Below are positions 1-55,672 of a stretch of 64,000 nucleotides of DNA, one piece after another. This stretch comes from an uncultured Eubacteriales bacterium (GTDB taxonomy: Bacteria > Bacillota > Clostridia > Lachnospirales > CAMVHY01). The notes below the pieces were generated by a model. The model had not been told where the DNA came from, did not search any database, and saw nothing but the letters and a program-made list of their open reading frames with translations. A program made the position numbers and the translations under genes. Location: contig CAOVHW010000004.1 in assembly GCA_948543815.1 (NCBI GenBank), forward strand, positions 10,079-74,078, given 5' to 3'. Position 1 is the first letter of the stretch. The number at the start of each line of letters is the position of its first letter.

Positions 1-42
1 TTTTTTTATTTTATCTTCTTCTTTTTTTATTTTATCTTCTTC
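1..42 (-). repeat. In-frame 21-nt tandem repeat, 2 identical copies at the window edge, encoding EEDKIKK
   Basis: Positions 1-21 and 22-42 are both tttttttattttatcttcttc. The array may continue beyond the window. Confidence 0.8.
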
Positions 43-1689
43 TATTCTTATTTTTTCATTTTCACTTTCAATTTTATCAACTGGTGTTCTTTCTATATTT
101 AATTGTTTAAAATTGTTTATAATTGTTTCTAAATTTTTCTTATGGTTTTCTAAATTTTTTTTAGATTTTTTTAAATCATTTTTACGAATATCTTGCTCTA
201 TTTTAAGTTTTTCTATTTCATTTCTCTTACCTTCGTATTTTTTAAATGAGCACAAATAAAATAATGTTTTTATAGGAACTTGCAAACAAAGACAAATATA
301 AATATTTTTTATATTATTTTTTTCATCATTTTCATACATGAATTTTAACAATTCTATAATTCTTTGTTTTTCATCCGTTGAAGCTTTTGTTTCGAAATAT
401 TCGAATATTTTCTTAAAATCGTTTTCTTGAAATTCATTATTATTGTTTAAAAAAACAAATATATTTTTAAAATAAGAATTAAATATTTCATTATTTAAAT
501 TAAGATAAAAAGATGTAGTAAAAAAAATGTTTTTTAAAGAAATTAATTTTTTTTCAAAATTTGATTCTTCATTTTCTTCTTCTTCATTTTCTTCTTCTTC
601 ATTTTCTTCTTCTTCATTTTCTTCTTCTTCATTAATAAACTTTTCAAAATTTTGAATTGAAAATAAATTGATTAATTTTGATGCGTTTTTATCATTTATC
701 TTTAAAAATTTTTTTGATAATATAAATCCTAGCCTTTTATTACTATCAGAAAAGGATTCAGGAAGATTGAATACACTAAAATTTTTTTCCATAATTTTAT
801 CAAAAGCAGATAAATTTAGAAAATCAAATGAAAATAATTCATAAAAATCTTTGTGATTAAAAATATCATTCCATTGTTTTTCTGAAAAATTAATTTCTTT
901 ATTTTTATCTAAATAATTAATCAAACGCTTTAATTCTTCTAATGGTGTTGTTAATATAGAAATTTTTATTATCGATTTTTTTAAACTTTCGTCATCATTT
1001 ACAAAATAGTTAAAAATATTTGTTGGCGTTAATTCAATTTCAATTTTTTCTGTTAAGTTAATTACGTGTAAATAATATTCATATAATGATTTTTCTTTAC
1101 AATAGTCTAAAATAGTTGATAGTAATAAGTTATTCTCTAAAGTTTTATTTGAATTATCAGGAACTATATGCATTTGTTTAATTATGTTTAAAATATCATT
1201 ATTGTTTAATAATTCATCAGAATGTTTATTAATAAATTCAAGAAAAATTGTAATTAAATCATTTAATTTAATTTGACTTGAATGCTCATCTTTGCATGAT
1301 TTAAATAAATCTGCAAAATACGAAAAATTATCTTTGATATTTAAATTTTTTATTAAACATTCTTTTATTTCTAATAATGGGTTTTGAGATGTAAAATCGA
1401 ATATTTTACAAATAAATAATAATTTTTCTAAATTTGACGCATTATAATTTATTGTAGCTAAAATCAATAATTGCTTAAATTTTGTGTTTGGTCTTTCGGT
1501 AATTAAAGCGTTTTGTATGAAATTTTTAGAATTGGGTAATTCAGATTCAGATATATCTGCTTCCAAAAATTTAGACAAAAAGTTTTTAAATAGTCGATTT
1601 TTATAATCATTTTTAGTTGGGCCCTTTAAAATTATTTTTTTAAATTGATTCCAAGGAAATTTTAGTAAAAAATCAGTTTTTTTTTTGCG
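1..1689 (-). CDS. C-terminal continuation of giant paralog A. Partial: it runs off the left edge and is reachable from ORF 1662..4853 only by a -1 shift or an extra A.
   Basis: The minus-strand frame with codons at 3k-2..3k is open from 1689 to position 1 (about 560 codons, no stop) in very A+T-rich DNA. My hand translation reads FPWNQFKKIILKGPTKNDYKNRLFKNFLSKFLEADISE...FINEEEENEEEENEEEENEEEENEE...KIRIEEDKIKKEEDKIKK. The first in-frame ATG is about 160 codons in (1173..1171), and I see no Shine-Dalgarno-like run near the 5' end. It is missing from the ORF track because it has no stop inside the window. Confidence 0.6.
571..630 (-). repeat. In-frame 15-nt tandem repeat, 4 perfect copies, encoding (EEEEN)n
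   Basis: The plus-strand unit attttcttcttcttc occurs at 571-585, 586-600, 601-615 and 616-630. It lies inside the open minus-strand frame. Confidence 0.9.
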
Positions 1690-4600
1690 TTAATTGCAAT
1701 TCTTCCTTCATTTGTTGCATTAGGAATATTTAAATTTTTAAATTCATGATCAGGAAATTCCTCAATTCTCATTAATATAAAACTATATGTATTACCATCT
1801 TTATCATTTAATCCAAAATCATTAATTTGTTCTTTTGTAAAAAGATAAATATTTTTATCCATCATATTAGTGAAATCTTCAAAACCTTCAGCATCATTAG
1901 ATTTATCAGGATAAAGTTTTTTTAGTTCTTTCATATCAATCTTATTAATATAATCTTTATATAAATTTTTTGGTGCATATGAAAGTATAATTAATATTTT
2001 TTCATAATTTATATCATTTTCAAAAAAAGTTTTAATTTCTTTTTTGATATTTTCAGTTGTATCGTAAGTAAGTTCAATTTCATTAACATAAAATATTTTT
2101 ATTAAATTATTGCAAGAAAGTTCTTTCAAATTTTTTATGTTTAATAATTGTTGTAAAGAAAATTTTATTTTATGAGTTTCATTTTCTAATTTTTCTTTAA
2201 TTTTTTCTGATTTAATAAAAAACAAATTGATTATATTATTTAAGGCATTAATGGATAATATACTTGTATCAAATAATGCTATTAATTCCGGTAAATTATT
2301 TTCATTAAATATTTCATCAAACCCAATAAATTCTCTAATTTCATTTTCAAATAAATCATTTATGAAATCTGAGAAATTATTACTATGTTCTAAAATATAT
2401 TTAAACCCATTTAAACATCTTGCAATATTTTCTTCTGAATTGTTTTGGTTTATTAAAATTTCGGGCAAAAGATTTTTTTGTTCTATCGCGTAATTGTTGA
2501 TTTTAAAAACATCCAAATAAATATTGTTAAGGTTTCCCGCAGAACTTTCATTTAGTTTTTTTATAAATTCTATTTTTAATTCGTTTTTATTTTTAAAATC
2601 TTTATTAATGTTTACAATTATTAATTGTTCGATAGTAAATTTATCTAAATTTTTTTCAAAAAAAGTTAGATATTTATCAAATTTTTTTTCTTCGATTAAT
2701 TTTGTTTTTAAAGCTGTTATATTAATTTCTTTAATGAAGTCATTGCTTAAATCGAAATATGAATTTATTAAAGCTATTAAAATTTCCATTGAAATTTTTT
2801 GTGCTATATTAGGGCCTAATGAAGAAATTTGAGATTGAGTAAGTAAGAATTCATTTTTGCTGTCCATTAATTTTTCTTGCAAAATTTTTAAACAATATTC
2901 TTCTTTTATCTCATTTAATCTGATTTTTTTAAAATTGTTGTCGTCAATTAAATCAAATTTTGTATGCAATAAGTTTTCAATTAAATTATTTGTTAAAAAA
3001 CTGAAATCTAAAATTTTTATTTGCTTATGTGTAAAATGTGGAATTAAATTAATAATTATTTTTTCAAATCCTTCAAAATTAGAATTTAACATAAAACATG
3101 CTTGTAAATTTGCTATAGCCATAGGATTTATATAGGATGCAAATGAATAGCTATTTTTTATTTGTGCAGTTCCATTATAGTTTGTTAATAATGTAAAATG
3201 ATCTCCTTCATCCATATCTTTAATATTTTGTATTGTTAATTCTTCAAACTTTGACATAGGAATAAAAGCTAATTTATGAACATCTTTTTTTATCCAATCA
3301 AAATGTGCATTAAACAAATTAAGTAATGCTTGTTGGGAAAGATCAGGATAAGAATTAGCCTCTAACTGATTAAATTGGTCTTCATTTTTAAAAGTTTTAT
3401 TGTTTTCAAGTGCATTATTAATGTTTTCTAAGTTTGCATTTCTTGGTATATATTTATCGTCAAATGTTAAACATTCACATAGAAAATCTAATGATATACC
3501 TACGCCATAATTTGTAGGAACTTTGTAAGCGTTATTTATTTTTTGAGCTCCAAAAATTTCTGTTCTACTATCTTCTGTATCAGTTAAATCTGTATCTGTT
3601 AATTTCTGAGTTATGTTACACTCAATTTTTTCTAACGTTTCTATAATTTCATTAATGCTAAGATTTGAATTGGATCCAATGTAATCAGTAAGATAATCTA
3701 GTAAACATTTTTTTATCACAGATGTTAAAGGTAAGTAAAAAAATAAATTTTTTCCTATAAAACCGTCTCCAAATGTTCTATCTTTTTTATCAAAATAATT
3801 AATAATAATTTGTGTTTCATGATCAATTTCTATAAATGAATTAAAAATACTTTCTATTAAATCAATTATTTGCTTTACGAATTCTGCACTTAATTCAATG
3901 TTTGTACTTTGATAAATTGAATTTATAAGAAAAATATATATTTGTTTATAATTTCCTGGAGAATCTAATGAAATATTAAGCAAATCGCTGTGATTATTTT
4001 TTATATCTTCCTTTAAGTTTAAAAAATTTCGAAGCATTGTCGTTCTTATATTTATTGGTGAATTTAAATTCATTAAAGCAATTGTATGCATAGTAGATTG
4101 TAGTATATAACTGCCATGCCAAAGTGTTTTTGCATCATTTATGCTTGGATTGAATTTTGCTTTAAATCTATTATTTATTATATCTGCTTCTGTGTTGCCA
4201 GTAGTATTAGGATGATTAATCCAAGTTTTAAGTGTTACAGAACCGTCTATATGAGCAGAACGAGTTATTGGATTACGACAATTCAAATTTATACCAGTGT
4301 CACGAATAAATAGTGATACGAGATCTGAGTTTGGATCTATTATTATTTGCCAATCGTCGTAATCTTTATAACCAACTGAATTAAGAGCCAAAGTTTTATT
4401 TTTAGATGAAATTTTTTCAATAGCAGAAAAAACATTACGTTCAGGCATAATAATGTTTTCTACGGGTACATCTTTGGATATACCTTGGGATTTAACTTGA
4501 TAATATTTGTTAAAAATATCACTAATATCTTTCATTACATTTATAATTTTTATTTCATCTTCAGAGAAATTATTTTTACTGCTTTCAAAATAACGTATAT

Positions 4601-4853
4601 ATGTATTAAATAAGTCTATATAACTTATGTTAGGAGCATCTTTTCTATGACAGCCAACATTAATTGCAGTTCTTGATTGACAAGTATTTACTTGAGACAT
4701 ACAAATAATTTTATCATTAGATTGAGAAAGAATTTTTAATTGAACTATTGGGATAATAAATAAAGTCCCAACGTCTCCATTTTTTTGTTTCATCATTATA
4801 TTTGTACAAAATGTTTTTGGATTTAAACTGTTTAAATTTATTCTTTCACTCAT
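1662..4853 (-). CDS. Giant-protein paralog A, conserved N-terminal module (1063 aa as it stands). Function unknown.
   Basis: Long ORF. It is collinear with the first ~1050 aa of the 3319-aa ORF. Shared blocks include PIVQL, VNTCQ(S/T)RT, APNxxYIDxxNTYI, DHETQ, DGRTF/DRTF, FIGKNxFxYxPL, FNEIIExxxKxEC, FDWI(K/R)KD and VFKINNY(A/T)IQEKN. RBS GGAAGTGA lies 5 nt before the ATG. There is no N-terminal signal-like hydrophobic stretch. Confidence 0.85.
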   Translation of the reverse strand: MSERINLNSLNPKTFCTNIMMKQKNGDVGTLFIIPIVQLKILSQSNDKIICMSQVNTCQSRTAINVGCHRKDAPNISYIDLFNTYIRYFESSKNNFSEDEIKIINVMKDISDIFNKYYQVKSQGISKDVPVENIIMPERNVFSAIEKISSKNKTLALNSVGYKDYDDWQIIIDPNSDLVSLFIRDTGINLNCRNPITRSAHIDGSVTLKTWINHPNTTGNTEADIINNRFKAKFNPSINDAKTLWHGSYILQSTMHTIALMNLNSPINIRTTMLRNFLNLKEDIKNNHSDLLNISLDSPGNYKQIYIFLINSIYQSTNIELSAEFVKQIIDLIESIFNSFIEIDHETQIIINYFDKKDRTFGDGFIGKNLFFYLPLTSVIKKCLLDYLTDYIGSNSNLSINEIIETLEKIECNITQKLTDTDLTDTEDSRTEIFGAQKINNAYKVPTNYGVGISLDFLCECLTFDDKYIPRNANLENINNALENNKTFKNEDQFNQLEANSYPDLSQQALLNLFNAHFDWIKKDVHKLAFIPMSKFEELTIQNIKDMDEGDHFTLLTNYNGTAQIKNSYSFASYINPMAIANLQACFMLNSNFEGFEKIIINLIPHFTHKQIKILDFSFLTNNLIENLLHTKFDLIDDNNFKKIRLNEIKEEYCLKILQEKLMDSKNEFLLTQSQISSLGPNIAQKISMEILIALINSYFDLSNDFIKEINITALKTKLIEEKKFDKYLTFFEKNLDKFTIEQLIIVNINKDFKNKNELKIEFIKKLNESSAGNLNNIYLDVFKINNYAIEQKNLLPEILINQNNSEENIARCLNGFKYILEHSNNFSDFINDLFENEIREFIGFDEIFNENNLPELIALFDTSILSINALNNIINLFFIKSEKIKEKLENETHKIKFSLQQLLNIKNLKELSCNNLIKIFYVNEIELTYDTTENIKKEIKTFFENDINYEKILIILSYAPKNLYKDYINKIDMKELKKLYPDKSNDAEGFEDFTNMMDKNIYLFTKEQINDFGLNDKDGNTYSFILMRIEEFPDHEFKNLNIPNATNEGRIAINAKKKLIFY

Positions 4854-4996
4854 ACTATCACTTCCAAATTGTGAGTTTATAATTTCTTATTATTAGATTA
4901 TCATAAAAATATAAAAAATACAAGTATAATTTTATTTCACTTTAAATGATATTGATATAATTACTATAATGATATAATAAAAAAAGGTGAATAAAA

Positions 4997-6055
4997 GTGA
5001 ATAAATTTGAACGCGTTAAAAAATTTATGCAGCAAAAAAATATTAACCAAATAATTATAACTGATCCGTTTGATATTTTTTATCTTACGGAACAATTAAT
5101 TGATCCAGGTGAAAGATTTTTCGGTATGTATTTAAATTGTAATGGCACAAAAAAAATTTTAGTGAATGAATTGTTTAAGTTAAAAGATATTGATGATATT
5201 GAAATTTTTTATTATACCGATTCTGATGACCCAATAAAAATTTTAGCGAGTATGTTAAAAAATGAATCACTGTTAGTTGATAAAAATTTTCCTGCAAGAT
5301 TTTTATTGCCACTTATGAATTTTTGTGATGTCAAATATTTTGTTAGCGATGTCTTGGAATATGTACGTTTAATAAAAGATACGGACGAGATAAATTTAAT
5401 GCGGCGTTCTTCATATTTGAGTGATCACGCAATGAATTTACTTGTTGCAAATATTTATGAAGGGCAAAGCGAATTAGAATTGGTAGAAATTTTAAAAGAT
5501 ATAAAGAAAAAATTAGAGCTTGATGCATTTTCATTTGAACCGATAATTGCATTTGGCGGGAATGCGGTAGAGCCTCATCATATTCCAAATAAAACAAAAT
5601 TAAAGCCAGGGGATTGTATCGTAATTGATATCGGTTTTGTAAAAGACAATTATTGTTCAGATATGACGCGGACATTTTTTTATAGATATGCAACGGATTT
5701 TGATAAAAAAATTTATGATATTGTATTGCAAGCAAATTTGGCGGCAATAAATAAAGTTAAGCCGGGCGTAAAATTTTGTGATATAGATTTAGCTGCAAGA
5801 AATTTTATAAAAGATAATGGATATGAAAAAAATTTTATCCATACAACTGGACATTCAATTGGATTACAATGTCATGAATTTGGGACAGTCAGTTTTCGTA
5901 ATCATGACACAATAAAACCGGGTATGATTTTTTCAATCGAACCCGGAATATATTTGAAAAATAAAATTGGCGTACGTATAGAAGATTTGATTTTGGTAAC
6001 TGATAATGGCTACGAAATTTTAAATAATTATCCGAAAAAATTACGAATAATATAA
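4997..6055 (+). CDS. pepP: Xaa-Pro aminopeptidase/dipeptidase, peptidase family M24B
   Basis: 352 aa with the M24 metal-ligand context: DIGFVKDNYCSDMTRTF, HTTGHSIGLQCHE, FSIEPGIY and VRIEDLILVT. GTG start with AAAGGTGA upstream. Confidence 0.85.
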   Translation: MNKFERVKKFMQQKNINQIIITDPFDIFYLTEQLIDPGERFFGMYLNCNGTKKILVNELFKLKDIDDIEIFYYTDSDDPIKILASMLKNESLLVDKNFPARFLLPLMNFCDVKYFVSDVLEYVRLIKDTDEINLMRRSSYLSDHAMNLLVANIYEGQSELELVEILKDIKKKLELDAFSFEPIIAFGGNAVEPHHIPNKTKLKPGDCIVIDIGFVKDNYCSDMTRTFFYRYATDFDKKIYDIVLQANLAAINKVKPGVKFCDIDLAARNFIKDNGYEKNFIHTTGHSIGLQCHEFGTVSFRNHDTIKPGMIFSIEPGIYLKNKIGVRIEDLILVTDNGYEILNNYPKKLRII

Positions 6056-6059
6056 AAAA

Positions 6060-6087
6060 AACGGTGAAACTATCAAGGTTCACCGTT
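6060..6087. terminator. Candidate bidirectional hairpin between the convergent pepP and giant gene B
   Basis: acggtgaa (6061-6068) pairs with ttcaccgt (6079-6086) around a 10-nt loop. An A-run lies upstream and ttttcttttt lies downstream. The hairpin overlaps the last codons of the 3319-aa ORF. Confidence 0.5.
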
Positions 6088-9000
6088 TTCTTTTTGTGTT
6101 TTTGATTTTGTTTCTGAATCGCCAAGTTGTGGAATTTCTTCCTCATTACTAAAATTTTTATTTTCCGTTTTATTGAAAAGAGAAGAACGCTCATTTGAAT
6201 TTTCAGTTGACATTTCATGTTCAGAGTTTTTTACTGAACTTTTTTCTGATTTATTATTTATTATTTTAATTGCAGACGGAGTAATCGAAGCTACAGCAGC
6301 AGCGAAGAAAGTTGAAAGCAAAGAAATTCCAAGAATTTGTCCTATAATAGGGAGCGCAAAAGTTAGTATTGTAATTACAATTGCAGTTATTGCAAATACA
6401 ATTCCTAAAGCTAAAGTAATAAATGGCCAAATAATTTTATTATTTAATTTTTGGTTTTTAAATTTTTGTTTATAATTTATATTTTTTTCATTTGGATCAT
6501 CTGGATTTTTTACAATTTTTTGCTCAGCTTCTTTTTCGGCCATACGTTCGGCTTCTTCTTTAGTTTTGCGTTCAGCTTCTTCTCTAGCTTTGCGTTCGGC
6601 TTCTTCTCTAGTTTTGCGTTCAGCTTCTTCTCTAGCTTTGCGTTCGGCTTCTTCTTTAGTTTTGCGCTCAGCTTCTTCTTTAGCTTTGCGTTCGGCTTCT
6701 TCTTTGGTTTTGCGCTCAGCTTCTTCTTTAGCTTTGCGTTCGGCTTCTTCTTTAGTTTTGCGCTCAGCTTCTTCTTTAGCTTTTTCTTCGATTAATTTTT
6801 TATTTTTAAATTCCTGTGATTTTGAACGCGTTAACTTTTTTGTTTTTGGGATAATTTCGTCAAATAATAGTTTATCTTGAATTTTATATATTTTATTTTT
6901 TAATTCATTAATTCTTTCAGATTTTTGACTCGCGTTTTTAATTGTTTCCGATATTTCGTAAAGAATGTTTAATGAGATATAATTCCTATTTTGTAATATA
7001 GCTTCATAATTATCATCAAGATAACTATTTGCAATATTAATATATTTATCAATATCATTTTCTTCTAATTTTATATTATCACAATAAATCAATAAGAGTA
7101 TTTTTTCATTATAATTATTATTGCTTAAATCGTAATTATTATCATTTGACATAAACATTTTTTCAATATGCAAGTTTTTATAATATTCATCATCAAAAGT
7201 TATAGTTATCTTATTAAATATATAAGAAGACAATTCTTTGAAATCTTTATTATTAATTATATTATTTAACTGAATTTTGGTTAGAAAGAAATCTTCTTTC
7301 TTTCCTTCTCGTTGTTCTTCTTCCTCTTCTTCTCGTTGTTCTTCTTCCTCTTTTTCTTGTTGTTCCTTTTGTTGTTCACAAAACGCGTTAGCAATAATAA
7401 TTGCATTTTCTATAGTTGCAATTGAAAAATTATTTGTATTAAATACTGTCATTAATTTAGAAATGCTATTTTCATCTAAAAATTCAAGGATTTCTTTATT
7501 GACTAAATGTGCTTCTTGTTTTTTATCGTACTCAACTAATTTTATATTGTTAAGATTCAAGAATTCAAATATATTTTTAGAAAAATTTTCGTATGTTAAA
7601 TTATCACTAGAGTTGTCACTTAACGAATTTTTTTTACACGTATAATGAAAAGCATAAAATAAAAAATTAATGATTTGATCTTGATATAATTCCTTTAAAA
7701 TAAAATCAGAACTTTTGCGTTGAATATCTTCATTTTTATTAATAACAAATAAAGCAATTAAATCGCTTAATGTTTTTATATTTTTTAAATTTGAGTGTTC
7801 CTCGGCAAATATTAAAAAATCATTATTAAAAAATTGTCCGAAAAACTGCCTACAATCTTCATTCTTACAATATTTAATGAAATTATTAAAACTTAATTCT
7901 GATAATTGAAATAAAATTTGTTTAAAAAGAATTTTTCTATTATCTGCATAACAAGAATTTTCAAAAAAATCAGAACCAAATAAACTATCAGAAAAATATA
8001 TTTCTTTATTGTAATATTCAATATGTTCTAGTATATATTTTAAACAAAATCTTGATATAAAACAAATTGTGCTAAGTTCAACATTAAAGTAGAGTTCCGA
8101 ATCCGAATCCACAATTTTTTTAAAAATTTCTTCCCAAATGATTTCAAAAAGAGGATCATGACCTTGTCGAAAGTTATAAAAATCGATATAATTTAATTTT
8201 TTAAATTCAGCTGCATATTGATAATTTTCGCCTAGAAATATTATTTCGTTTAAATCATTTTTGAAATTTGGATTTTTTTCAAAAAATAAATGCAAATTTT
8301 TATAAATAGAATCATATGTTCTGCATATAATTTTTATATTGCCATCATTGCCATCTTCAGTATAAGTTTCAAAATAAGTAATTATACCGATATTCTTTAT
8401 TAAATCTTTAGTGAATTCTTCTTCATCAAATGAAAATATGTCATTAATAATGTTAATAACGTTGTAAAATCCTATATTATAGGATTTATTATCAGGTTCA
8501 TCATAGAGTTTATTAATTATATTATAAAAATTATTTATAATATCTTGGGTTAAATTTTTAAGTGGATTAAGTATACTTTTAGAAATAAAAGATTTACGAT
8601 CTTTTTTTAGACGAATACTTTTGGTAATTTTATTTTTTATTTCAAATATTGTTGTTGAAATTTTTTCTCTAATATTTTGTTCCATTTTTTTAGTTAGTAT
8701 TTTGGAAAATGGCAAATAAATTTTATTCTCAATCGTACTTTCATTAATATCATTAGGGAAATAAATTTCTTCTAATTGTTCATTCAAATCTTTATAAACA
8801 TCCGTAAAACAATTATATGAATAAAATTCAGTTAAAAAACATATCATCAAAGTTTGAAGATTAGATGAAAATTTATCTATATTTTCCTCCTTAAACTGGT
8901 TATTTGCAAAAGATAAAATTGCAGAATTAATATTTTCAATTAAACTAATATAATAATTTTTGTTTTTCATATAAAAGTTTATGTTAGTTAAATCAATTTT

Positions 9001-12000
9001 TTCAGAATTTAAACGAATATTTTCTTCAATCATATCAAATAAAGAAATAAATTTTTGTTCTTTATGTAAATAAAATTCGCCAAAAATATATGCCAACTCC
9101 TCGTTTGATATTGAATCGAAATATTTCTTTTTAATTTTTTTAATATCATCGATATTCAAACGATTAATACGAAAGTGGTCATATAATAAAAGTTTTTTTT
9201 CGTAATCCTGAAAATTGGAGATGCCAATAAAATTATCTAAAAATTTATATAAAAAATCGAACAAAACATTTTCGTGAATATTAAAAATATCTTTTTCATT
9301 GTTATAAAATTCTTGAAAAAAAAATCCCAAATTAGCAAATAATTCTTTTGGAGCAGAAACTAATTTTTCTTCTATAAAGTAATTTATTTTTTTAATAAAT
9401 AAATTCATATTTTTTGAATAAAATTTAATAATACCTTTAAGGAGATTACTACCACTCTCAAAATCAATTGCCCAAAGTATTCTTAAAGGTAATTGACAAA
9501 AATAATTTATTTTTTCATCCAAATCTGTAATATCATTGAAAAAAAGGCTTGGTTTTAAATTACACGGCAAATCCATACAATTTAATTTATTTGATAGATC
9601 ATTATTTGTAAAGATTATATTTCCATTATCATTTTTTTTGAAAAGATCAGTAAAAGAAATAATAGAAATTATATTTTCTTTTATTATTTCTTGTATATCA
9701 TTAGAATTCATCTTATTTTGATAGATGAACAACAAATCATTTATATATACTTTATTTATAAATTCATATTTTAAAAGCAAAAATTTTTTGGTAATAAATG
9801 TTTTATGCATATATTGATTATTATGTTTATTCCAATCAAAATAGTCATTAAGAATATTTTTGAATTTATCATTTTTAATTTTTGTTAATTCTGACAAAAG
9901 AATTTCTAACGGTTGCAAATTTAACATAAATAAATTTTTGTTTTTCAATATATAAAATACTTGTTCTTCGTTAAAATTACATAATTTATTTTTTTCGTGA
10001 ATTATTTGCAAAAAATTAAAACTTAAATTTTCTGTATTTAAATAATATAAAAAATGCCAATTGGATTTAAGCGCATGTTTAAAGAATTTACTTGTTTCAT
10101 TATTGAAATTTGGCCATTGAAATTTATTTATAGAGATTATTTTTAACATATTATTTGGGCAATAAAAATTATTCGAATAAATATAATTTATCATTTTAAC
10201 AAAATTTTCTTTATCTAATTCTTGCCTATTTTTATCGGTAATATAAATATTGAAGTCAGTATTACTATCAAATAAATTTGTTAATATATTTATTATATTT
10301 TTATTTTTATTTTTGTTTTCATTTAAATATTCTATTACATTCCAAAAATTATTGTAGAAAAAATTTTTAAATATTTCCTCGGTTTCTGAATTGTTTTGGT
10401 TTTCATCATTAATAATCAATGCAAATAAAGTTTGATTTTTTTGGGGATTATAAAAGTTTTTTTGAAAAGATTTTTCCATTAATATACTATTTATTAAATT
10501 AAAAGGTAATAAATTAACACAATTTATTGTGTAATTTAAATCATACCCTTCTTTTAATTCCAAATTGAATTTGGTATTTTTTTTAATTTCCAAGCTTTTT
10601 ATTTGTTCAAGGTATTTTTTGAGATGTTCATTTTTTAAAATTACTTTGTTAGTTTCGTCAAATTCACAGCTTGCAAAAAGACGGTTTATACAAATTTGTG
10701 TACATTTTTCAAAACTATAAGCTTCAGAAAGTTGCAATATATTAAGATCATTTTCGTGTTTAGAAATAATATTAATAAAAAAAATTTTTCCATCGTATTC
10801 ATTTTTTATAAATGATTTAAATTTAAAAGGTGAATTGCAAAAATCACGAATTTGCCATATATCATTTTTCGAAAATTTATCTAAAAAAAGTCCTAAATAA
10901 AGTAATACTAATTTTTGTTGAATGTAATTATCATTTGAGGGTGAAGCTTCAAAAATATCATAAAAATAGTTTAATTCTTCTATTTTATCATTATTTAAAG
11001 AGCAAAAATGATAAAATTCTTCGATTGATAATAATTGCAATAAATCATTTTTACGCTTAAAGTTTATCAATTCATCTGTGTTGAATTTTGCTTCTGAGAT
11101 TTTTTTAAAATTTTCATTTGATAATTTTTCAATATTTAATTTTATGAAATCATAAAATTGTCCCTGAATTGCATTATTGGAAATATATTCTTTAGGCAAG
11201 TTATGTATAAAATTGTAAAATGATTCAATAAAATAATTAAATTCGCTTTTTTCATAATTGTTTGCTACTGAAATTTTATCAAGATCTTTTATATATATAA
11301 GGAACAATTCACAAATATTATCGTTTATTTTAGAATTAAATATGAATTTTAATAAAATAAATGGTTCAATATTAAGTTTATCAATATCTTTTCTTATTTC
11401 TTGAATATTACTGTTTTGATTGAGAGCAATTAATTTTTCACAAAACGCAATTTTAAGGTTAGCGTAAGTATTTGCTCCCGTCGGAATATATTTAATTATT
11501 TGATGTAAATGATTATATTCTAATTGATCAACCTTTTTATCCTTTAAAATAGTCCATAATTGATTTTCTGAAAATTGAATATCAGTAGATAATTGGTCTA
11601 TTATGTTTTTTAATTTTTCTAATTCTATTGTTTTTATATCGATAATGTTAATTATTGTTTTTATACTTTCGGAATAATTGGAGAAATATTTTAATATTTC
11701 GTTATAGCTACAATTGATTTCAATAGCTCTTATTATTTCAAATATTATATAATTAATATCAAAATCGAATGTTTTATTTTGGTTGAAATAATTCATGAGA
11801 TTAAATAAAAGTTCTTTTATTTTTAATATGTTTTTATTTTTTTTATCGTCAATATTATTATCATTGTTGTTTTTTATTTTTTTGAATTTATTCAAAGATT
11901 CGCTTTTGTTGCTTTCATCTGACAATTCATTTTTTAATTTTTTAATTATAGTTTCGAAAAATTCAAGTAAAATTTTGTGTTTTGAGTCTGATTCTTCTGT

Positions 12001-21133: not shown

Positions 21134-21175
21134 GATTTTAAAGTTATTTGTGTTACAATTTTTCAGGTGAAAATT

Positions 21176-21880
21176 ATGAGTAATGAATTGCTTTTGATTT
21201 TAAATCTTATTTTTTTATACTCATGTGTAATTATTTTTTTCTATCTTTTTGAAAATATTGGCCTATATGTTTGGAGTGCGATTGCAACTATTTTAGCAAA
21301 CATTGAAGTTTTAATAATAGTAAATGCGTTTGGGATGCGGCAGACTTTAGGGAATATTTTATTTGCCACAACTTTTTTAGTTACAGATATTTTAAGTGAG
21401 ACGTACGGGAAAAAATTTGCACAGCGAGCAGTAGATATTGGAATAATTTCATCGTTGATATTTATTTTTATTTCGCAGTCGTGGTTATTTTATAAACCAG
21501 ATACGAATGATTTTGCGGCAGCACATATGAAAATAATTTTTTCGAACACACCACGCTTAATAATTGCAAGTTTTATTGTTTATATTATCGTTCAGAAATT
21601 TGATGTTTGGTTGTATCATAAATTGTGGGAGATAACGTCAAAAGTAAGTGGCGACTCAAAAAAATATTTATGGCTGCGGAATAATTTCGCAACGTTAGTA
21701 TCACAATTTTTAAATGTATTTCTTTATACATTCGCAGCATTTTATGGAATATATAATTTATCAATCATATGGGAATTAATTTTTTCGAGCTACGTAATTT
21801 TTATTTTTACAAGTTTATTAGATACACCAATTTTATATTTCGCACGAAAAATTTATTTTTGTAAGCATTTTAATTCGTAG
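21176..21880 (+). CDS. yhhQ: Queuosine-precursor transporter family protein (YhhQ / DUF165-like)
   Basis: Polytopic membrane protein with blocks I recognise as YhhQ-like: FATTFLVTDILSETYGKKFA, LWLRNNFATLVSQFL and DTPILYFARK. I prefer the ATG at 21176, preceded by CAGGTGA. The ORF-track start at 21005 reads through the repeat element. Confidence 0.7.
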   Translation: MSNELLLILNLIFLYSCVIIFFYLFENIGLYVWSAIATILANIEVLIIVNAFGMRQTLGNILFATTFLVTDILSETYGKKFAQRAVDIGIISSLIFIFISQSWLFYKPDTNDFAAAHMKIIFSNTPRLIIASFIVYIIVQKFDVWLYHKLWEITSKVSGDSKKYLWLRNNFATLVSQFLNVFLYTFAAFYGIYNLSIIWELIFSSYVIFIFTSLLDTPILYFARKIYFCKHFNS

Positions 21881-22556: not shown

Positions 22557-22701
22557 AGTTTTCGCCTCAAATTTATTATCTCTGTTTTTAAAAAATATAT
22601 TAGTGAGAAAAAATTTTATTTAACTAAAAAATTTGTTTTATCTCCATTTATATTGTATAATTTATAAGAGAGATAATAGATTTTCAAAGAAGGTGAATTT
22701 T

Positions 22702-25700
22702 ATGAGTGAACCTGTTATTAGTGAAAGTGTTGATGTGTTTAGAGAAATACGTCGTTGTTATCGTTTATCTTTAGATTTACAAAAAGAAGCTCAAGCTGCG
22801 GAAGAAAATTATAAAAAAATTATTGAAACTGAAGCTAAAAAGTTTAAAGATCGTAACGAAGAAAATTATAAAAAAGTTATAGAAAACGGATCAGTTATAC
22901 AAAGTAGAAATGAATTAGAAAATGTTATATGTAAATTGATGACATTAAGAGATTATGTATTAATGTTAGAACCAATGATGTTACAGGAAAATTTGACAGA
23001 TGCTGAGAAAAATAATATTAATTTCAACATGGAATGGAATAAATATTGTGCGTTGAAAGATAATGAAAAAGTTAATGAGCGTTGGCAAAAATTAAAATCA
23101 GAAAAAGAGGAAGAAGAGGAAGAAAGTATTAGTGATTTTTTTTCTGATGAAAAAAATGAAGAAACACCAAATGAACAAAAAAATGAGTATGAAGAATTAA
23201 TTTCAGAGTTTGGTAATTTTGAGTGTGATAATTTTTTTGAACTATTAATGAAGCAAGTCAAAGAAAATGAAACAACGGATAACGATGAAGATATTAATGA
23301 GCTGAGGAAAAATTATGGTTCAATTAGTAATTTTAATATTCAAGAGAAAAGAGAATTTTTAAATTCAATATTTGATTTTAAAGTTATTACATCAAAAAAT
23401 GTTTTAGATACATTTAAATTACTATTGGTAAGTAGTAAATGTGGGTTATATTCCAGTAAAGTTTCGCATGGTTATGTTAATTACAATATTGAAGAAAAAA
23501 GTTTAGGCGGCAAAAACAAATTAGATGAAATTGCGGAAGATTTGTTTTTTCCTAAAACTGATTTTAAAGATATACCTTCACAAAATATTGGTTCTTCTAG
23601 AATGGATGGATCTTGTTTACTTGGTGCAATCTTTCCATATTTAACGCAGGAGATAATGGACAAGATTGTAGATTATGTCAAAAAGCATAACATGTCATGT
23701 CCTACAATTACTGTTCTCAATGAAAATTGTAAAAATGAAGTAATTTTTAATTATGATGGTGTAACAACTTTTTTTGACCTTGTAATTAAAAATAGATTTG
23801 ACAGGGATTGGGAAAATAATTTTAATTATATTATGTATATGCGTGCTGCAATTGCCATAATGATGTATAAAAATATATCACAAAATAAAAAAAATGAAAT
23901 TAATAATAATGAAATTGCATACGTTTTAGGTTTTGGAACAAATGAAATAGGTTATATTGAAGCAAATTCATCTGTAATGGATGCTATAGCTAATTTAACT
24001 GGTTACTCGATTGTAGCTATTACAAATCAAACTCCACCTTCGTACTTTCCAAGCTATGCAAATTTATCAAATGAATGTGTAAGACTTAATTATTCTGTAC
24101 CGAATAAACTTAAAAGGAGATGTTATAAAGAAGATATTACAAATTATAATAATGATCATGAAAATTCAGGAGAAATAGAAATAAATCAGGCAAATAGTAG
24201 AGCCAAAATGGCTATAAATGATTTTATGTATACCCTTATAAATGGTAATAAAAATGATAAGGTTGAAGCAATTGCTAAAGGTACAAACTCAGTAATTGAA
24301 CCTGCAAAATATAAAATTGATGAAAATACAGAGCAAAAAATTATTTTTGTTAGAAAAAGTTATCTCCATTATGAACCAGTTCAACCAAATGGTTTTAAGC
24401 CTGGAGCGTTAGGAGAACAAGAATTCAATTCAGTTGAATTACCACAAAAGCAAAAAGATTTTGCTAATTATTTGCGTAATCAAAAAACTATTAAACCTGT
24501 TCCTACAAATGTCAGCCAAGAAATGAGTGATTTATTATTCAGAAAAAATTTACCGATATCTCAAATAGAAAGTGCACAATATTTATTGTATGGCATTAGT
24601 CAAAATCCAGAGTTGGTTAATTATTTTCGACAGGTTACTAAATCAAAATATGAGAAAAAAATAGATGAATTTAAAACAACTTGGGAAAATAAATTAAATG
24701 AAATGCAAAAAAATCTGGAAAAAAAATTTGCTAAATCAAAAGAAGAAGTTTTAAAAGCTAAATTTAAATCTATTGAAAAAAAAGATAGTTTTATAAATAA
24801 TTTACGTGATAATTATATAAATCGAATAATGTTTATTAATTTTTTACGTTATTTTATAATGCAAAAATATTTTTATGAAATGGAGATTGAAAATGAATTT
24901 GAAAAATTCTGTTCAGAGCTTAGTTTAAATCAAGAACAAGAAATAAAATTTAATTTATTAATTAGTGAAAATGAAAATGAATATGGAAATTTTAAAAAAT
25001 CGTTTGATGTTTTAAAAAATGTTATAAAGAAGTTAAAATCAAATGAAATAGACGAAGAAAATAGCGAAATAAAAAAAAGAATCAAAAAGAATTATGAGCA
25101 GTCAATAAGTGAATGTAAAAATATTTGCGATGCAATGAAAATGGATTATGGAATAAAAATTGATGATAATTTAATAAAAAAAAATCAAAGTGTCGGAATA
25201 AGTTCATTTTTCCTTTCAGTTTTATCTTATATTACACCGAAAGAATTTAATTTGATAAGAAAATATGTTGATGAAAAAAATCAAGAGGTTAAAATAAATG
25301 GAAAACAAAGGACAGTTTTGGATTGGCTTAATGATTCAGAGGAAAATCTTTTAACTCCGGAAATTTATTTGCGCGCGTATGTAGTTTTAAAATGTTTAGA
25401 AAGATTTCCAGATGATAATAAACGTGATAAAAATTTGAATAGTAATCTTAGAACAATATTAGGTTGTGAGAGAGATAAAAATATAGATTGGACAAATTTT
25501 GCTTTCTTTAAACTAGTTTCACAAACTTTAGAAAAATCAATTTTAATTGTTAGTCCCGGAACAGATAAAGATAAATCAGGATATTGTTGTGTAAAATCAA
25601 AAAATGAAAAGATTGAGATAGATGAAAGTGCAAAAAAATTATCAGATTTTTCATCAACTGAAATAGTAAATGCAGACAAAAAAATTAATAATACCTGTAA

Positions 25701-27444
25701 TAATTTTAGCGAAAATGGATGTATTTGTATTCATTATTCTGATGAAAATAATTTTGCTCCTATTGGTTATGATTTAGATATTAATAAATTTGGCAGTATG
25801 ATTTTATCTATTGATGATGAAGTTTCAACAAAAAATATAAAATTGTTGGCTAATAATTTTTTGGAAACTTTACATGTGAATTTGAGTTCAAAGTTTTTAA
25901 AAACCACAAAAAATGTAATAGCAATGGCATTGTTGAGTAAAAATTTAAAACAAAATGACATAAGTTTACTAAAAAAATGGTTTACAGATAATAATAATAA
26001 TTTTTTAGAAAATAAATTTGAGAAATTTGCAAATATCATTCTTGAAAATATACGCAATCCTTTCCAAACTTCAAGTTTTAATATTTTAGTTGTAGCAAAT
26101 TTATTTAGTAAAGGGATTCATTTTTCTTCAGATTTGAATTCAAAATTATTTCAGATTGAACCTATAGAAAAATTTTTGCCATCAGATATGTATGATGAAT
26201 TTCTGAATAATTTTCTTAAAATTGATAAAAAATCTCAGGAAAACATAATAAATTTATTAATCGATTATAAAGAAAATACTCAATATGTTTTGCCACTTGT
26301 TTGTGATTTAATAAATAATAAGTCTGATGGAAGCATTTATAAAAATTTAGTTACTTTGCTTGAAGCAAAAGAAAACGTTGATTTTTATATCTCAAATAGA
26401 AAAAGTATTGAAGAAAAAAATTATAAATTGATTTCACGATTAAATATAGATGAAAATTTAAAATCTGATTTTATTAAAAAAATCCATTTTTTAAGTTTAG
26501 AAGAATTAAATTTTTTGGAGAAAATTATTTTAAACTCTGGACAAAATGCAACTGCATTATTAAAATTATCTATTAAAGATTTTCAAGATATTAATGAAAA
26601 ATTTATAGAATGGAAGAATTTTTTACGACTTAATGGATTTAGTGAAAGACAAATTAGAAACATGGAAAATAAATTTATCCATGAAAAATTAAATGTCAAA
26701 AATTTTGATGTAAAAAAATTTTTAATTGAAATACATATGATGCAAAAAAATTATTTATTAATTTCCAGCAAAGATAAAAGAGATTATTATTCAAATCCAA
26801 TTGAATACGTCGAAAATTTTCAAAAGGATTTGAAAAAAATAAAAGAAATGCTTCAAAAGCCAATTGGTAATTTTGAAAAATTGTTTGATTTGTGTGATGA
26901 CAAAGTTTTAGTTGATAAATGTTTAACGGCTTTAGAATCAGAAAAAACAAACGAAAGTATTGATTTTGCAAAAAAACTTAAAGCAATAATTGAAATTAAA
27001 AAAAGTTTATGCAGAGTAAGAAGTTGGCATAGAGATACAGCAAAAGCTTTTATTACAAATGTTTTCAGAAGTTATGTAAGCAACAATCCATTTAATTATG
27101 ATAGTTTTGTAAGTAATTTAGAAGATTTTATTGAGCAATATTGTAAAAATCCTCGAGGCTTTGCTGAAATAATACAAATGCGTAATAGTTTGGGCAGAAT
27201 AAATTATAAAACTTTTCAAGCGCTTTATGATTCAAGCTTAGATTCGATTTCAAAAAAATTTACTGAATTGACGAATGATGAAGCTTTAATTTTGTTTTAT
27301 TTATGTATTAGAACCTTTACAAAGAATGAAGTTCAACAAAAAACAAATTTTGCAGAAAAGATAAATGAAGCAATAAAAAAAGAAAATGATTTACAACCAT
27401 CATTACAAAGTAGTACAGATGAATCACTTACTGAGCATAATTAG
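22702..27444 (+). CDS. Large orphan protein (about 1580 aa) with two tandem OTU-like cysteine-peptidase-like regions
   Basis: Long ORF. I prefer the ATG at 22702 with GAAGGTGA 6 nt upstream over the TTG at 22633. Region 1 motifs are MDGSCLLGAI (Cys codon 23614-23616), FGTNEIGYIE...MDAIANLTGYSIVAI and SYLHYEPV (His 24367-24369). Region 2 motifs are GISSFFLSVL (Ser 25204-25206), DWTNFAFFKLVSQTLEKSILIV and CICIHYSDE (His 25732-25734). Confidence 0.85.
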   Translation: MSEPVISESVDVFREIRRCYRLSLDLQKEAQAAEENYKKIIETEAKKFKDRNEENYKKVIENGSVIQSRNELENVICKLMTLRDYVLMLEPMMLQENLTDAEKNNINFNMEWNKYCALKDNEKVNERWQKLKSEKEEEEEESISDFFSDEKNEETPNEQKNEYEELISEFGNFECDNFFELLMKQVKENETTDNDEDINELRKNYGSISNFNIQEKREFLNSIFDFKVITSKNVLDTFKLLLVSSKCGLYSSKVSHGYVNYNIEEKSLGGKNKLDEIAEDLFFPKTDFKDIPSQNIGSSRMDGSCLLGAIFPYLTQEIMDKIVDYVKKHNMSCPTITVLNENCKNEVIFNYDGVTTFFDLVIKNRFDRDWENNFNYIMYMRAAIAIMMYKNISQNKKNEINNNEIAYVLGFGTNEIGYIEANSSVMDAIANLTGYSIVAITNQTPPSYFPSYANLSNECVRLNYSVPNKLKRRCYKEDITNYNNDHENSGEIEINQANSRAKMAINDFMYTLINGNKNDKVEAIAKGTNSVIEPAKYKIDENTEQKIIFVRKSYLHYEPVQPNGFKPGALGEQEFNSVELPQKQKDFANYLRNQKTIKPVPTNVSQEMSDLLFRKNLPISQIESAQYLLYGISQNPELVNYFRQVTKSKYEKKIDEFKTTWENKLNEMQKNLEKKFAKSKEEVLKAKFKSIEKKDSFINNLRDNYINRIMFINFLRYFIMQKYFYEMEIENEFEKFCSELSLNQEQEIKFNLLISENENEYGNFKKSFDVLKNVIKKLKSNEIDEENSEIKKRIKKNYEQSISECKNICDAMKMDYGIKIDDNLIKKNQSVGISSFFLSVLSYITPKEFNLIRKYVDEKNQEVKINGKQRTVLDWLNDSEENLLTPEIYLRAYVVLKCLERFPDDNKRDKNLNSNLRTILGCERDKNIDWTNFAFFKLVSQTLEKSILIVSPGTDKDKSGYCCVKSKNEKIEIDESAKKLSDFSSTEIVNADKKINNTCNNFSENGCICIHYSDENNFAPIGYDLDINKFGSMILSIDDEVSTKNIKLLANNFLETLHVNLSSKFLKTTKNVIAMALLSKNLKQNDISLLKKWFTDNNNNFLENKFEKFANIILENIRNPFQTSSFNILVVANLFSKGIHFSSDLNSKLFQIEPIEKFLPSDMYDEFLNNFLKIDKKSQENIINLLIDYKENTQYVLPLVCDLINNKSDGSIYKNLVTLLEAKENVDFYISNRKSIEEKNYKLISRLNIDENLKSDFIKKIHFLSLEELNFLEKIILNSGQNATALLKLSIKDFQDINEKFIEWKNFLRLNGFSERQIRNMENKFIHEKLNVKNFDVKKFLIEIHMMQKNYLLISSKDKRDYYSNPIEYVENFQKDLKKIKEMLQKPIGNFEKLFDLCDDKVLVDKCLTALESEKTNESIDFAKKLKAIIEIKKSLCRVRSWHRDTAKAFITNVFRSYVSNNPFNYDSFVSNLEDFIEQYCKNPRGFAEIIQMRNSLGRINYKTFQALYDSSLDSISKKFTELTNDEALILFYLCIRTFTKNEVQQKTNFAEKINEAIKKENDLQPSLQSSTDESLTEHN

Positions 27445-34062: not shown

Positions 34063-36033
34063 ATGGAAGATATGGAAGAAATTACTTTCGCAGGACAAAA
34101 ATATTATTTTACAGAGGAACTAGTAAAGTTGTGGCAAAAAAGGTTAGTTTTAGAAATTTTTAAGCAAAATGCTACTCCTGAAAAACAGAAATATTTGAAA
34201 TTTGAGTTTGAATATGGAGATACAAAATATACTAAGTGTATTAGTGGTTTAACTGATAATATGATTAATGAAATAATTAAAAATGACAGGAATTATGTTG
34301 AAAATTTTGTAAAAAAAAACTTAAATATAAGTCAACAAAAAATTATATTTTTACTTAATAATTTTGAATTTAGTTTTGTGATAGATGATAATTTAAAAAA
34401 TTATTTAACCAATCAATTAGTTAATTATTTTTTAAAACGATTTTTTCTAGAAACTGAAGAAGATTTTGAGTTCTTGAGTGAATTTATTCCGTCCATTTTA
34501 TTTTATGGATTAAATGAAAGATTGAGTAGATTAAGAGAATTAAAATGTTCAAAGGAAGAAGAAAATATTATTCAAAATGAAGTTGTTTTTTACATAAAAA
34601 AGTTAAACATCTTAGAACGATTTAGTGTTAATGAATTTAAATTTGCTCAATTAGAATTAGATTTACAGATAAAATTTTTAGCTTTAATGTCTATTTATAA
34701 AAAGCCTGAACAAATTAATTCAATAATTAATTTTTTTAATAGTGATTTATTCACAGAAGCTGAAAGAAATAATTTTATGAAAATAATTTTGAATAAATTT
34801 TTGGAAGAACGTGCAGATAAAGATTTTGGTTTAAAATCTAAAGTAGTAGGTCAAATTGGAATAAATCAAACAACAAATGAAGCTATGTTTGATGTTATTA
34901 AGGATAAATTATTTTTGTTTAAAACGAATAAAAGAAAGTTTAAATTTGAATTAAGCAATTTAAAAGAAAAATTTAGTAAAAATGAAAATTCAAATTTGAG
35001 TTTTGAAAATAAGGATTATCTTGAAAAAAATTCACCAATGCGTGAAGTATATATAAAATGTTCTCCAGTAGAAATGATAAATTTAGTATTATTTGTTTAT
35101 GAACACTCTCCAGATACTTTAAAAACAAGTAAGACTTATGAAAAGTTGAAAGAAAATGTTGAAAAAAATGATACTCTAACAATTGAGATTTTATCTAAAC
35201 AAATGGTTAATACATTTGAAAATTGTATGAATTTAAATCAAGACAAAGATATAGAAACGTTGAAAAAAATTATTTTTAGAAAAGAAAAGGAAATAGAAAA
35301 TTATATTTATGAAGAAGTTAATTTAAAAGATAGAGTAAAACATATAACGGCTTTAGATAAAGCAGTTATTATTATTAATAAAAAAATTGATTATGAATAT
35401 AAAATTGAATTAATGGCAAAAAATTTAACAGAAATTTTATTAAAAGGAACGGAATCGGAAAAAATTTTGCAACAAAAAGAACAAATTATTTTGGCAAATG
35501 CACGAGAAATTTTTTATGATGTTTATAATGTTAAAATGGGAGATGATGAAAGAAAAAAATATAGAAAAGCGCTTGCTAAAGCAATGGATTTGGCTGAAGC
35601 AAAAATTCATACTGAATATTTTATTAATGCTTTTCGAAAATATACAAGTAAAAGATGGTGGCAACGTGAGAAAACGATGGAAGAAAAATTAAAAATTGTT
35701 AATGATATTTATACGAATTCAGTTGAAGGAATGAGTGAAGTGCAAATTGAAGTGTTAACTCAAGCAAAAAGAATTGTAACAAATGAATTATTAAGTAAAG
35801 AATATGAACGATTAAATGAAGAAACAAATGAATTTGCAATGAATAATTCGCAAACATCAGAAGAAATTTTTGATTTGGGCGAAAAATTAAAGAAAGACAT
35901 AAATTCTAGTAGTCAACCTGAAAATGTAAAAAAGAGTTTGCTTGAAAAAGTAAATGATATCGGACGGAAAAAATTTGAAAATATTCCACTTCAACAAATT
36001 AATTCTGATTTTAAATTTTTCTCCAATCATTAA
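34063..36033 (+). CDS. Orphan 656-aa helical protein with no TM segment. Function unknown.
   Basis: Long ORF in A+T-rich DNA with GAGGTGA upstream. I recognise no motifs. Confidence 0.85.
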   Translation: MEDMEEITFAGQKYYFTEELVKLWQKRLVLEIFKQNATPEKQKYLKFEFEYGDTKYTKCISGLTDNMINEIIKNDRNYVENFVKKNLNISQQKIIFLLNNFEFSFVIDDNLKNYLTNQLVNYFLKRFFLETEEDFEFLSEFIPSILFYGLNERLSRLRELKCSKEEENIIQNEVVFYIKKLNILERFSVNEFKFAQLELDLQIKFLALMSIYKKPEQINSIINFFNSDLFTEAERNNFMKIILNKFLEERADKDFGLKSKVVGQIGINQTTNEAMFDVIKDKLFLFKTNKRKFKFELSNLKEKFSKNENSNLSFENKDYLEKNSPMREVYIKCSPVEMINLVLFVYEHSPDTLKTSKTYEKLKENVEKNDTLTIEILSKQMVNTFENCMNLNQDKDIETLKKIIFRKEKEIENYIYEEVNLKDRVKHITALDKAVIIINKKIDYEYKIELMAKNLTEILLKGTESEKILQQKEQIILANAREIFYDVYNVKMGDDERKKYRKALAKAMDLAEAKIHTEYFINAFRKYTSKRWWQREKTMEEKLKIVNDIYTNSVEGMSEVQIEVLTQAKRIVTNELLSKEYERLNEETNEFAMNNSQTSEEIFDLGEKLKKDINSSSQPENVKKSLLEKVNDIGRKKFENIPLQQINSDFKFFSNH

Positions 36034-55660: not shown

Positions 55661-55672
55661 GATCAACATCTC

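Follow-up and report, generated by a model that had tools for sequence, protein, structure and literature searches.

A polymorphic homopolymer frameshift in a giant accessory gene of an uncultured Clostridia lineage

Homopolymer length governs phase variation at contingency loci, which include surface genes of Campylobacter, Haemophilus, Neisseria, Helicobacter, and Mycoplasma. In Citrobacter rodentium tssM1, an A11 tract lies 28 nucleotides (nt) before a stop, slippage of RNA polymerase has been shown by experiment to give ~20% frame restoration, and both protein forms are required, with a similar case in Yersinia (PMC4256274). Insertions and deletions (indels) in poly(A)/poly(T) runs of Blochmannia and Buchnera produce homopolymer frameshifts, associated with the first steps of gene erosion or with slippage-corrected expression (PMC3017870 and references 14 to 16 therein). 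Here, we report a frame break at a run of 10 A residues (A10) in a giant gene, called gene A, on the minus strand of a 64-kb stretch of DNA (the window; GenBank assembly GCA_948543815.1, contig CAOVHW010000004.1, forward-strand positions 10,079 to 74,078) from a gut-type Clostridia metagenome-assembled genome (MAG) of low guanine-plus-cytosine (GC) content (19 to 38%). Coordinates are those of the window unless a locus is named; L-numbers denote loci fetched from other assemblies and relatives, and all compared sequences were assembly consensus contigs. The homopolymer break is real and not an accident of assembly. We consider it probable, with considerable room for doubt, that it reflects early, non-adaptive decay, in which a real slipped-strand frameshift in a hypermutable A10.T6 tract truncated gene A, a redundant, accessory paralog of the intact gene B.

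Gene A shares with the Blochmannia and Buchnera cases a single-base indel in an A/T run of at least 9 nt, a very A+T-rich coding region in a gene that is otherwise open, and an ambiguity between very recent erosion and slippage-corrected expression. It differs from them in its host, a free-living-type, spore-former-like Clostridia MAG (SpoIIR, FtsX, and EnvC genes lie nearby) rather than an obligate endosymbiont, and in being a lineage-specific accessory giant gene rather than a housekeeping gene, with an unconserved A9/A10 state and a second break. As in tssM1, the poly(A) tract precedes a premature stop by a few codons, the downstream frame encodes the C-terminal portion of a large protein associated with the membrane, RNA structure and a nearby Shine-Dalgarno sequence are both absent, and the frame would be restored by one more A in the mRNA; unlike tssM1, gene A has a tract of varying length and a second frameshift that blocks the full-length product, and it is known from sequence alone. 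Like contingency loci, it carries a homopolymer within the gene that varies in length among otherwise identical strains, and this variation alters the product, a large, fast-evolving, probably envelope-anchored protein, but only OFF lengths were observed and the tract is not conserved in the nearest relative. The −1 frameshifting of dnaX and the IS3 family (reviewed in PMC5009743) is matched by A_AAA_AAA in the 0 frame and a downstream open reading frame (ORF) in the −1 frame; unlike there, gene A has no stimulatory hairpin or pseudoknot and no conservation, the motif being a Lys-Lys-Lys run in a gene of 19% GC. In its working, the break resembles the homopolymer frameshifts with which genes of A+T-rich genomes begin to erode, and its likeness to tssM1 and contingency loci is anatomical only. 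As an event, the frameshift is commonplace, one more case of a familiar kind and not a new mechanism.

Frame break and tract-length alleles

The upstream part of gene A (A_up; 1662 to 4853, minus strand) is an ORF of 1063 amino acids (aa) that carries the conserved N-terminal module, as seen from its frame and its alignment to B. Over the break, the minus strand reads GCA AAA AAA AAA CTG ATT TTT TAC TAA. The A10 run (plus-strand T10; 1677 to 1686, minus strand), the only homopolymer of 10 in 64 kb (runs of 9, n = 16), ends 13 nt before the TAA of the 1063-aa ORF (1662 to 1664, minus strand). On its 5′ side, the −1 frame is closed by another TAA (1690 to 1692, minus strand), and from there it runs off the window as 563 stop-free codons (A_down; 1 to 1689, minus strand). 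The two frames overlap by 28 nt that contain both A10 and a T6 run (1667 to 1672, minus strand), and a 1-nt length change yields a single ORF. One added A gives a conceptual ORF of 1618 stop-free codons reading ..INAKKKTDFLLKFPWNQ.., and extension of T6 to T7 restores the frame equally well, giving AKKKLIFLLKFP; the junction peptides of the restored frame are INAKKKTDFLLK and INAKKKLIFLLK, and the tract is flanked by ATTGCAATTAACGC and CTGATTTTTTAC. An earlier examination of the letters alone (the sequence-only reading) had described the break sequence, the A10 position, both TAA stops, the −1 frame open from 1689 to 1, and a 28-nt overlap holding the homopolymer; all of this was borne out, with the T6 run inside the overlap as an addition.

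A_down contains no stop in the −1 frame, versus 58 and 94 in the other two frames; the chance of a 563-codon open frame is ~1e-27 at a stop frequency of ~0.10 per codon. Its codon-position composition equals that of A_up and B (G, 0.20 at position 1 and 0.05 at positions 2 and 3). Because of this composition and the lack of stops, A_down is a real coding frame and not a chance one. No start codon with a ribosome-binding site was found for it in the A10 allele, as the sequence-only reading had seen; the ATG-free stretch, put there at ~160 codons, is slightly longer, with the first ATG at codon 173. TTG codons occur at positions 38, 42, and 75, each without a Shine-Dalgarno sequence.

Length of the tract is polymorphic among otherwise near-identical contigs. 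L083 (NCBI MAG GCA_948506575.1, contig CAOPUI010000004.1) derives from the same strain as the window and is 100% identical to it wherever both overlap. A10, with the exact 1063-aa product (..INAKKKLIFY*), was found in GCA_948506575.1, in ENA ERZ17912809 (from SRR10593849), in Logan SRR10593864 (two samples), and in SRR25373264, making at least four independent assemblies (carriers: window, L083, L084, L085, and L086). A9, with a 1059-aa product ending ..AKKN (..INAKKN*), was found in at least four others, including Logan SRR34342996 (three samples) and SRR7227843, which are 99.96 to 100% identical over 5.6 kb (carriers: L081 and L082). Against the window, A10 contigs show zero indels over 4.4 to 14 kb and 0 to 1 mismatch, and A9 contigs show one gap (A9 for A10) and 0 to 1 mismatch over 5.6 kb. 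The frames are joined by A8 or A11 and not by A9 or A10. In the A9 allele, the upstream ORF stops at a TGA in the tract region after 1059 aa, and a TAA follows ten codons beyond this TGA; the downstream frame is already open from 18 codons ahead of the tract, with in-frame ATG, ATG, and TTG (MQQMKEELQLTQKKTDFLL), for which no well-placed ribosome-binding site was found.

None of the ~8 assemblies carried an in-frame allele (A11 or A8), and the protein cluster has 1059-aa and 1063-aa members only, in an index that omits truncated products from short contigs. In JGI metagenome contigs, neither a protein-based scan nor one with a DNA pattern of variable tract length found gene A. Word-indexed protein searches with fused A and with the A3+A4 segment returned its own cluster only, or nothing, and say little about absence because their lists are crowded with low-complexity candidates. 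The window genes that were compared with Pfam/NCBIfam match over their full length, among them leuS and a histidine kinase, both of which contain A9 runs, and the assembly is therefore not generally homopolymer damaged. The possibility of a sequencing or assembly error, which the sequence-only reading had offered first, is countered by the recurrence of A10 and of A9 in independent assemblies, neither being in frame; its second suggestion, a recent or phase-variable frameshift, stands in so far as a real, polymorphic frameshift is concerned (A9/A10, with read-through in the intact homologue).

Ancestral frame, second break, and turnover of the locus

Loci of relatives were fetched with the pepQ-like M24 peptidase gene that lies between A and B (4997 to 6055, plus strand) as the anchor. 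In L094 (GCA_948632375.1; pepQ, 97% identical to that of the window), the giant gene stays open in one frame for at least 2,850 codons, after which come a scaffold gap and a 527-codon end. Over residues 328 to 1106, the L094 product and conceptual fused A share 73% identity in a single frame, local alignment across the junction gives an E value of 1e-5, and the homologous site has no long homopolymer (..AACAATAAAATAAAATTATTTTCAAAATTTCC..). The remnant in a sister species (L087) is likewise in a single frame across the homologous junction (..KKLNIPENFNDVNLAIKIGNSNDRIKLFSKFPLKEFLKIKI..), and its nucleotide alignment with the window needs a gap of 10 nt, a length not divisible by 3. Orthologs that also end at this point had been named beforehand as evidence against a broken gene; the homologues compared do not terminate there. 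A_up and A_down were therefore once one ORF, and the tract and the frameshift are derived in the lineage of the window. At the site, relatives read K-L-F-S-K-F-P, which fits restoration by T7 (K-L-I-F-L-L-K-F-P) slightly better than restoration by A11 (K-T-D-F-L-L-K-F-P), so the lost base may, on this slight difference between peptides, have been a T.

Nucleotide homology of A to L094 and L087 stops at 1722, 36 nt 5′ of the A tract, and protein similarity continues beyond 1722 for ~47 residues at ~32% identity; at position 1722, near the frameshift, either divergence changes sharply or recombination left an old boundary. A recombination joint as the cause of the frameshift was rejected, since protein homology extends ~47 residues past the junction in the shifted frame.

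A second −1 break was found in L083 at an A7T6 run (15448 to 15469; ..TAC AAA AAA ATT TTT TGA.., CAAAAAAATTTTTTGA), ~600 nt beyond window base 1 and 2.3 kb downstream of A10; its TGA stop overlaps the TTG of the next frame (TTGA). An internal repeat unit of ~137 aa reads continuously through the homologous site (..EANFEIFTSENSQILLNFPIKVILNLCS.. vs ..ETNFDVLKRFTNEQYKK / (N/IF)FLKFPIKIILKLCS...), and the spacing of repeat anchors differs by 11 nt at the break, which together identify it as a true frameshift in an ancestrally continuous ORF. Both breaks lie just 5′ of a shared protein motif, K-K-x-F-L-x-F-P, and they coincide with it because a gene of 19% GC encodes this motif as an A run plus a T run. 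The A7T6 run is too short for efficient slippage, and rescue at A10 alone therefore cannot yield the full-length protein.

In L083, the frames of gene A run for ~11.6 kb (10001 to 21640), with A_down continuing ~6.8 kb beyond the window; the formerly continuous gene had ~3,900 codons. It ends in charged 23-aa repeats (69-nt period) and a two-helix membrane hairpin (L083, 20456 to 21640). This hairpin is 64% identical to the C terminus of B (E = 3e-22), and, sharing the same C-terminal anchor, A is a full paralog of B (N-terminal module, variable middle, repeats, and anchor). The resemblance to the C terminus of B that had been attributed to A_down itself proved compositional only (best local match, E = 0.02); the B-like C terminus of A is ~7 kb further on, outside the window. 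Inside A_down are (EEEEN)x4, encoded by a 15-nt tandem repeat (565 to 633, minus strand) at which short-read contigs break, and (EDKIKKE)n, encoded by a 21-nt tandem repeat (1 to 54, minus strand) beside a 100-N scaffold gap of the NCBI MAG.

Among relatives, the locus turns over rapidly. L087, with 87.6% nucleotide identity in the flanking folC, retains a giant-gene remnant with stops and large deletions (9259 to 11240), and in the more distant L109 (pepQ, 72%; 6920 to 9302), pepQ lies directly beside folC-envC-ftsX without a giant gene. L094 (11080 to 21058) has a single giant gene at the position of B, with an A-type N terminus (90% and 84% nucleotide identity to 2193 to 3875 and 1722 to 2196 of the window) and a B-type 3′ end (92.5%); three unrelated ORFs fill the position of A in L094 and L104. 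Gene A is dispensable, because relatives carry intact, recombined, or almost deleted copies, and the giant genes are accessory and fast changing. This family is of more interest than the frameshift: within ~3 to 9% divergence, its members are intact, recombined, frameshifted, or nearly deleted, which implies strong turnover of an accessory function.

Probable decay and its alternatives

The ancestral gene A encoded a ~1,050-aa N-terminal module, which B also has, then a variable middle, charged tandem repeats, and finally a transmembrane hairpin at the C terminus. Under early decay, replication slippage would then have removed one base (A11 to A10 or T7 to T6), shifting the frame into a TAA after 1063 aa, and a later change of the tract from A10 to A9 would have moved the end to a TGA after 1059 aa. 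With the second −1 break at A7T6, the gene would be accumulating disabling indels while paralog B stays intact. The unanchored N-terminal module (1063 or 1059 aa) would be the only product made efficiently; RNA polymerase slippage on A10 probably gives a minority of A11 transcripts, which would extend the product to the second break only. Gene A combines what marks an eroding gene, namely, a homopolymer break, an ancestral single frame, a further disabling break (in one assembly), and loss or degradation of the gene in relatives.

Several points weigh against decay. All sampled strains are near-identical and give no age for the frameshift, and ~2,800 downstream codons are still stop-free, as they might also be in a gene kept in use by slippage or phase switching. 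The second break was observed in one assembly only (L083), in which two 100-N gaps within gene A (14887 to 14986 and 20816 to 20915) hide the frame relations of further junctions. Behind the consensus contigs, populations could harbor a minority of in-frame alleles (A11 or A8), and fused alleles on short contigs outside the protein index would have been missed. In L110 (a distant homologue, ENA ERZ1048766; 10001 to 17372), an ORF of 783 aa with the N-terminal module precedes one of 1675 aa that ends in a transmembrane hairpin, the two overlapping by 8 nt (ATGAATAG) in different frames without a homopolymer. L110 is either a natural two-gene form of the giant-gene family or another broken copy, and the split form may therefore be functional.

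Adaptive phase variation is unlikely but deserves weight: the poly(A) tract would switch between A11/A8, encoding a full-length membrane-anchored protein, and A9/A10, encoding a free N-terminal module, with the switch maintained by selection. A9 and A10 do differ between otherwise identical genomes from different samples, the family is hypervariable in close relatives, a pattern expected of surface or interaction proteins, the codons downstream remain intact, and the break falls directly after the conserved module, such that the OFF state would keep it complete. An ON allele is what such a switch calls for, but zero in-frame alleles were seen in ~8 assemblies, and the A7T6 frameshift would hold the gene OFF at any length of the A tract. 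Furthermore, the tract is missing from the intact homologue of the closest relative and is not a conserved switch, and lysine runs in a gene of 19% GC yield such tracts without selection. Somewhat more doubtful still is a working switch in which changes in tract length (A9, A10, and A11) and RNA polymerase slippage together would set the ratio of the free N-terminal module to the membrane-anchored form of a ~3,900-aa protein. If this were true, an uncultured Clostridia lineage would supply one of the rare documented poly(A) contingency loci, and a new protein family would contain a contingency locus or a two-form system like that of tssM1.

Functional recoding, whereby transcriptional slippage (an extra A) or −1 ribosomal slippage on A_AAA_AAA would make a fused long form beside the 1063-aa form, is improbable. 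The A10 run 13 nt upstream of the stop includes a slippery heptamer in the 0 frame, (GC)A AAA AAA, the downstream frame has no independent start, and there are precedents in tssM1 (PMC4256274) and in endosymbionts (PMC3017870). Searches for accompanying signals found little: a 141-nt fold gave no stimulatory RNA structure (z = 0.19), no terminator was found, promoter-like matches were at chance level, and an Rfam scan found a tRNA only. A weak AAGGAAG motif lies ~15 nt upstream of the tract, and there is no properly spaced internal Shine-Dalgarno sequence. The frameshifted state is also not conserved (the A9 and A10 alleles would have to be corrected in opposite directions, and the relative is without the tract), and the A7T6 break would stop a fused product ~800 codons later. 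Such rescue is maintained in essential genes, whereas gene A is accessory and has been lost in relatives. An alternative genetic code was rejected, as long ORFs occur under table 11, the only tRNA-Trp found in the window has the anticodon CCA, and translation past the TGA of the A9 allele would soon end at the TAA beyond it.

Gene fission, tolerated or functional, with the N-terminal module and the anchored remainder made as separate polypeptides and the A9 downstream ORF starting at the ATG 33 nt upstream of the tract (MQQMKEELQLTQKKTDFLL), is highly improbable. The early opening of the A9 downstream frame with its in-frame starts, the two-ORF arrangement of L110, and a 1138-aa family member called complete with its own stop on a 3.9-kb contig (only 85 nt follow that stop) speak for it. 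Neither allele offers a convincing Shine-Dalgarno sequence at a usable distance, the A10 allele has no start for 37 codons, the remainder is split again by the second break, and the close relative L094 keeps a single ORF.

The least credible explanation is that the true tract is in frame and that both A10 and A9 are miscalls of what is the longest homopolymer in the window, since A10 came independently from three assemblers or sources and at least four runs, and A9 from at least four runs, with zero other indels in 4.4 to 14 kb holding many A7 to A9 runs, with tested window genes of full length (two with A9 runs), and with the second break at A7T6, a run that is not error prone. In its favor is L092 (Logan SRR27871427), a copy of B matching 12345 to 15206 with contractions of T7 to T5 (~13398) and A6 to A5 (~12643), which is called as two ORFs (606 and 264 aa) and is otherwise identical to B; homopolymer errors or further alleles therefore exist in Logan data. 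L092 has several homopolymer differences in 2.9 kb versus a single one in the A9 contigs, and it represents either error-prone reads or a strain in which B is frameshifted too.

For annotation, gene A should be marked as frameshifted rather than entered as a 1063-aa gene with orphan ORFs or silently corrected. A homopolymer "error" in a MAG can be a real allele that is polymorphic across samples.

Paralog B, the N-terminal module, and genomic setting

Paralog B (6073 to 16032, minus strand) is an intact ORF of 3319 aa with the same N-terminal module and a C-terminal transmembrane hairpin; an exact look-up of B found no record. Its C-terminal region (6073 to 7200, minus strand) contains KEEAERK-type repeats (11 copies at 6522 to 6784) and the two-helix hairpin. 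Residues 13 to 1031 of A align to residues 15 to 1061 of B with 34% identity (E = 2e-118). By sequence, A and B are predicted to be tail-anchored giant proteins of 3,300 to 3,900 aa. A 100-N gap in L083 (7971 to 8070, matching 6729 to 6783 of the window) is spurious and is closed by the window, its flanks overlapping by 55 nt within the 24-nt repeats of B.

No Pfam match above the curated family cutoff was found for A_up or B. An exhaustive profile search with the A/B module returned six proteins only, of which P0004 and P0006 are small ORF fragments of the decayed A ortholog in the sister species (L087). The N-terminal ~460 aa of A (3460 to 4853, minus strand) and B (14560 to 16032, minus strand) are common to the distant proteins P0005, P0007, and P0008, with the motifs VNTCQxRTA (Cys58), DHxTQ (His345), and DGFIGKNxYFYxP. 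His345 is invariant in 5/5 aligned sequences, Cys58 is conserved in 4/4 covering that column, and Asp355 and Asp363 are invariant in the alignment. In a low-confidence AlphaFold model of the module (pLDDT, 56), the top four PDB matches were chains of the Legionella SidC N-terminal ubiquitin-ligase domain (SidC-like, SNL), a weak match (Foldseek E = 0.013; TM, 0.35), and no sequence match was found in PDB or Pfam. Judging from the model, the module is possibly enzymatic and SidC-like.

The giant genes (1 to 16032) have a GC content of 19 to 20%, versus 27 to 38% in the flanking housekeeping genes (27 to 35% in the flanks), which fits lineage-specific acquisition or relaxed, AT-biased evolution. 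Four more large ORFs without a significant Pfam/NCBIfam match lie in the window, at 22633 to 27444 (plus strand; 1603 aa), 34063 to 36033 (plus strand; 656 aa), 53549 to 55669 (minus strand; 706 aa), and 58214 to 60601 (plus strand; 795 aa); the 1603-aa ORF has no similarity to A. The housekeeping genes leuS, ffh, folC, ftsX, an envC-like gene, dxr, and that for IMPDH are complete in the window, and its LeuRS shares 97% identity with the enzyme of an "uncultured Clostridia" MAG and ~67% with those of Anaerotignaceae and Lachnospiraceae.

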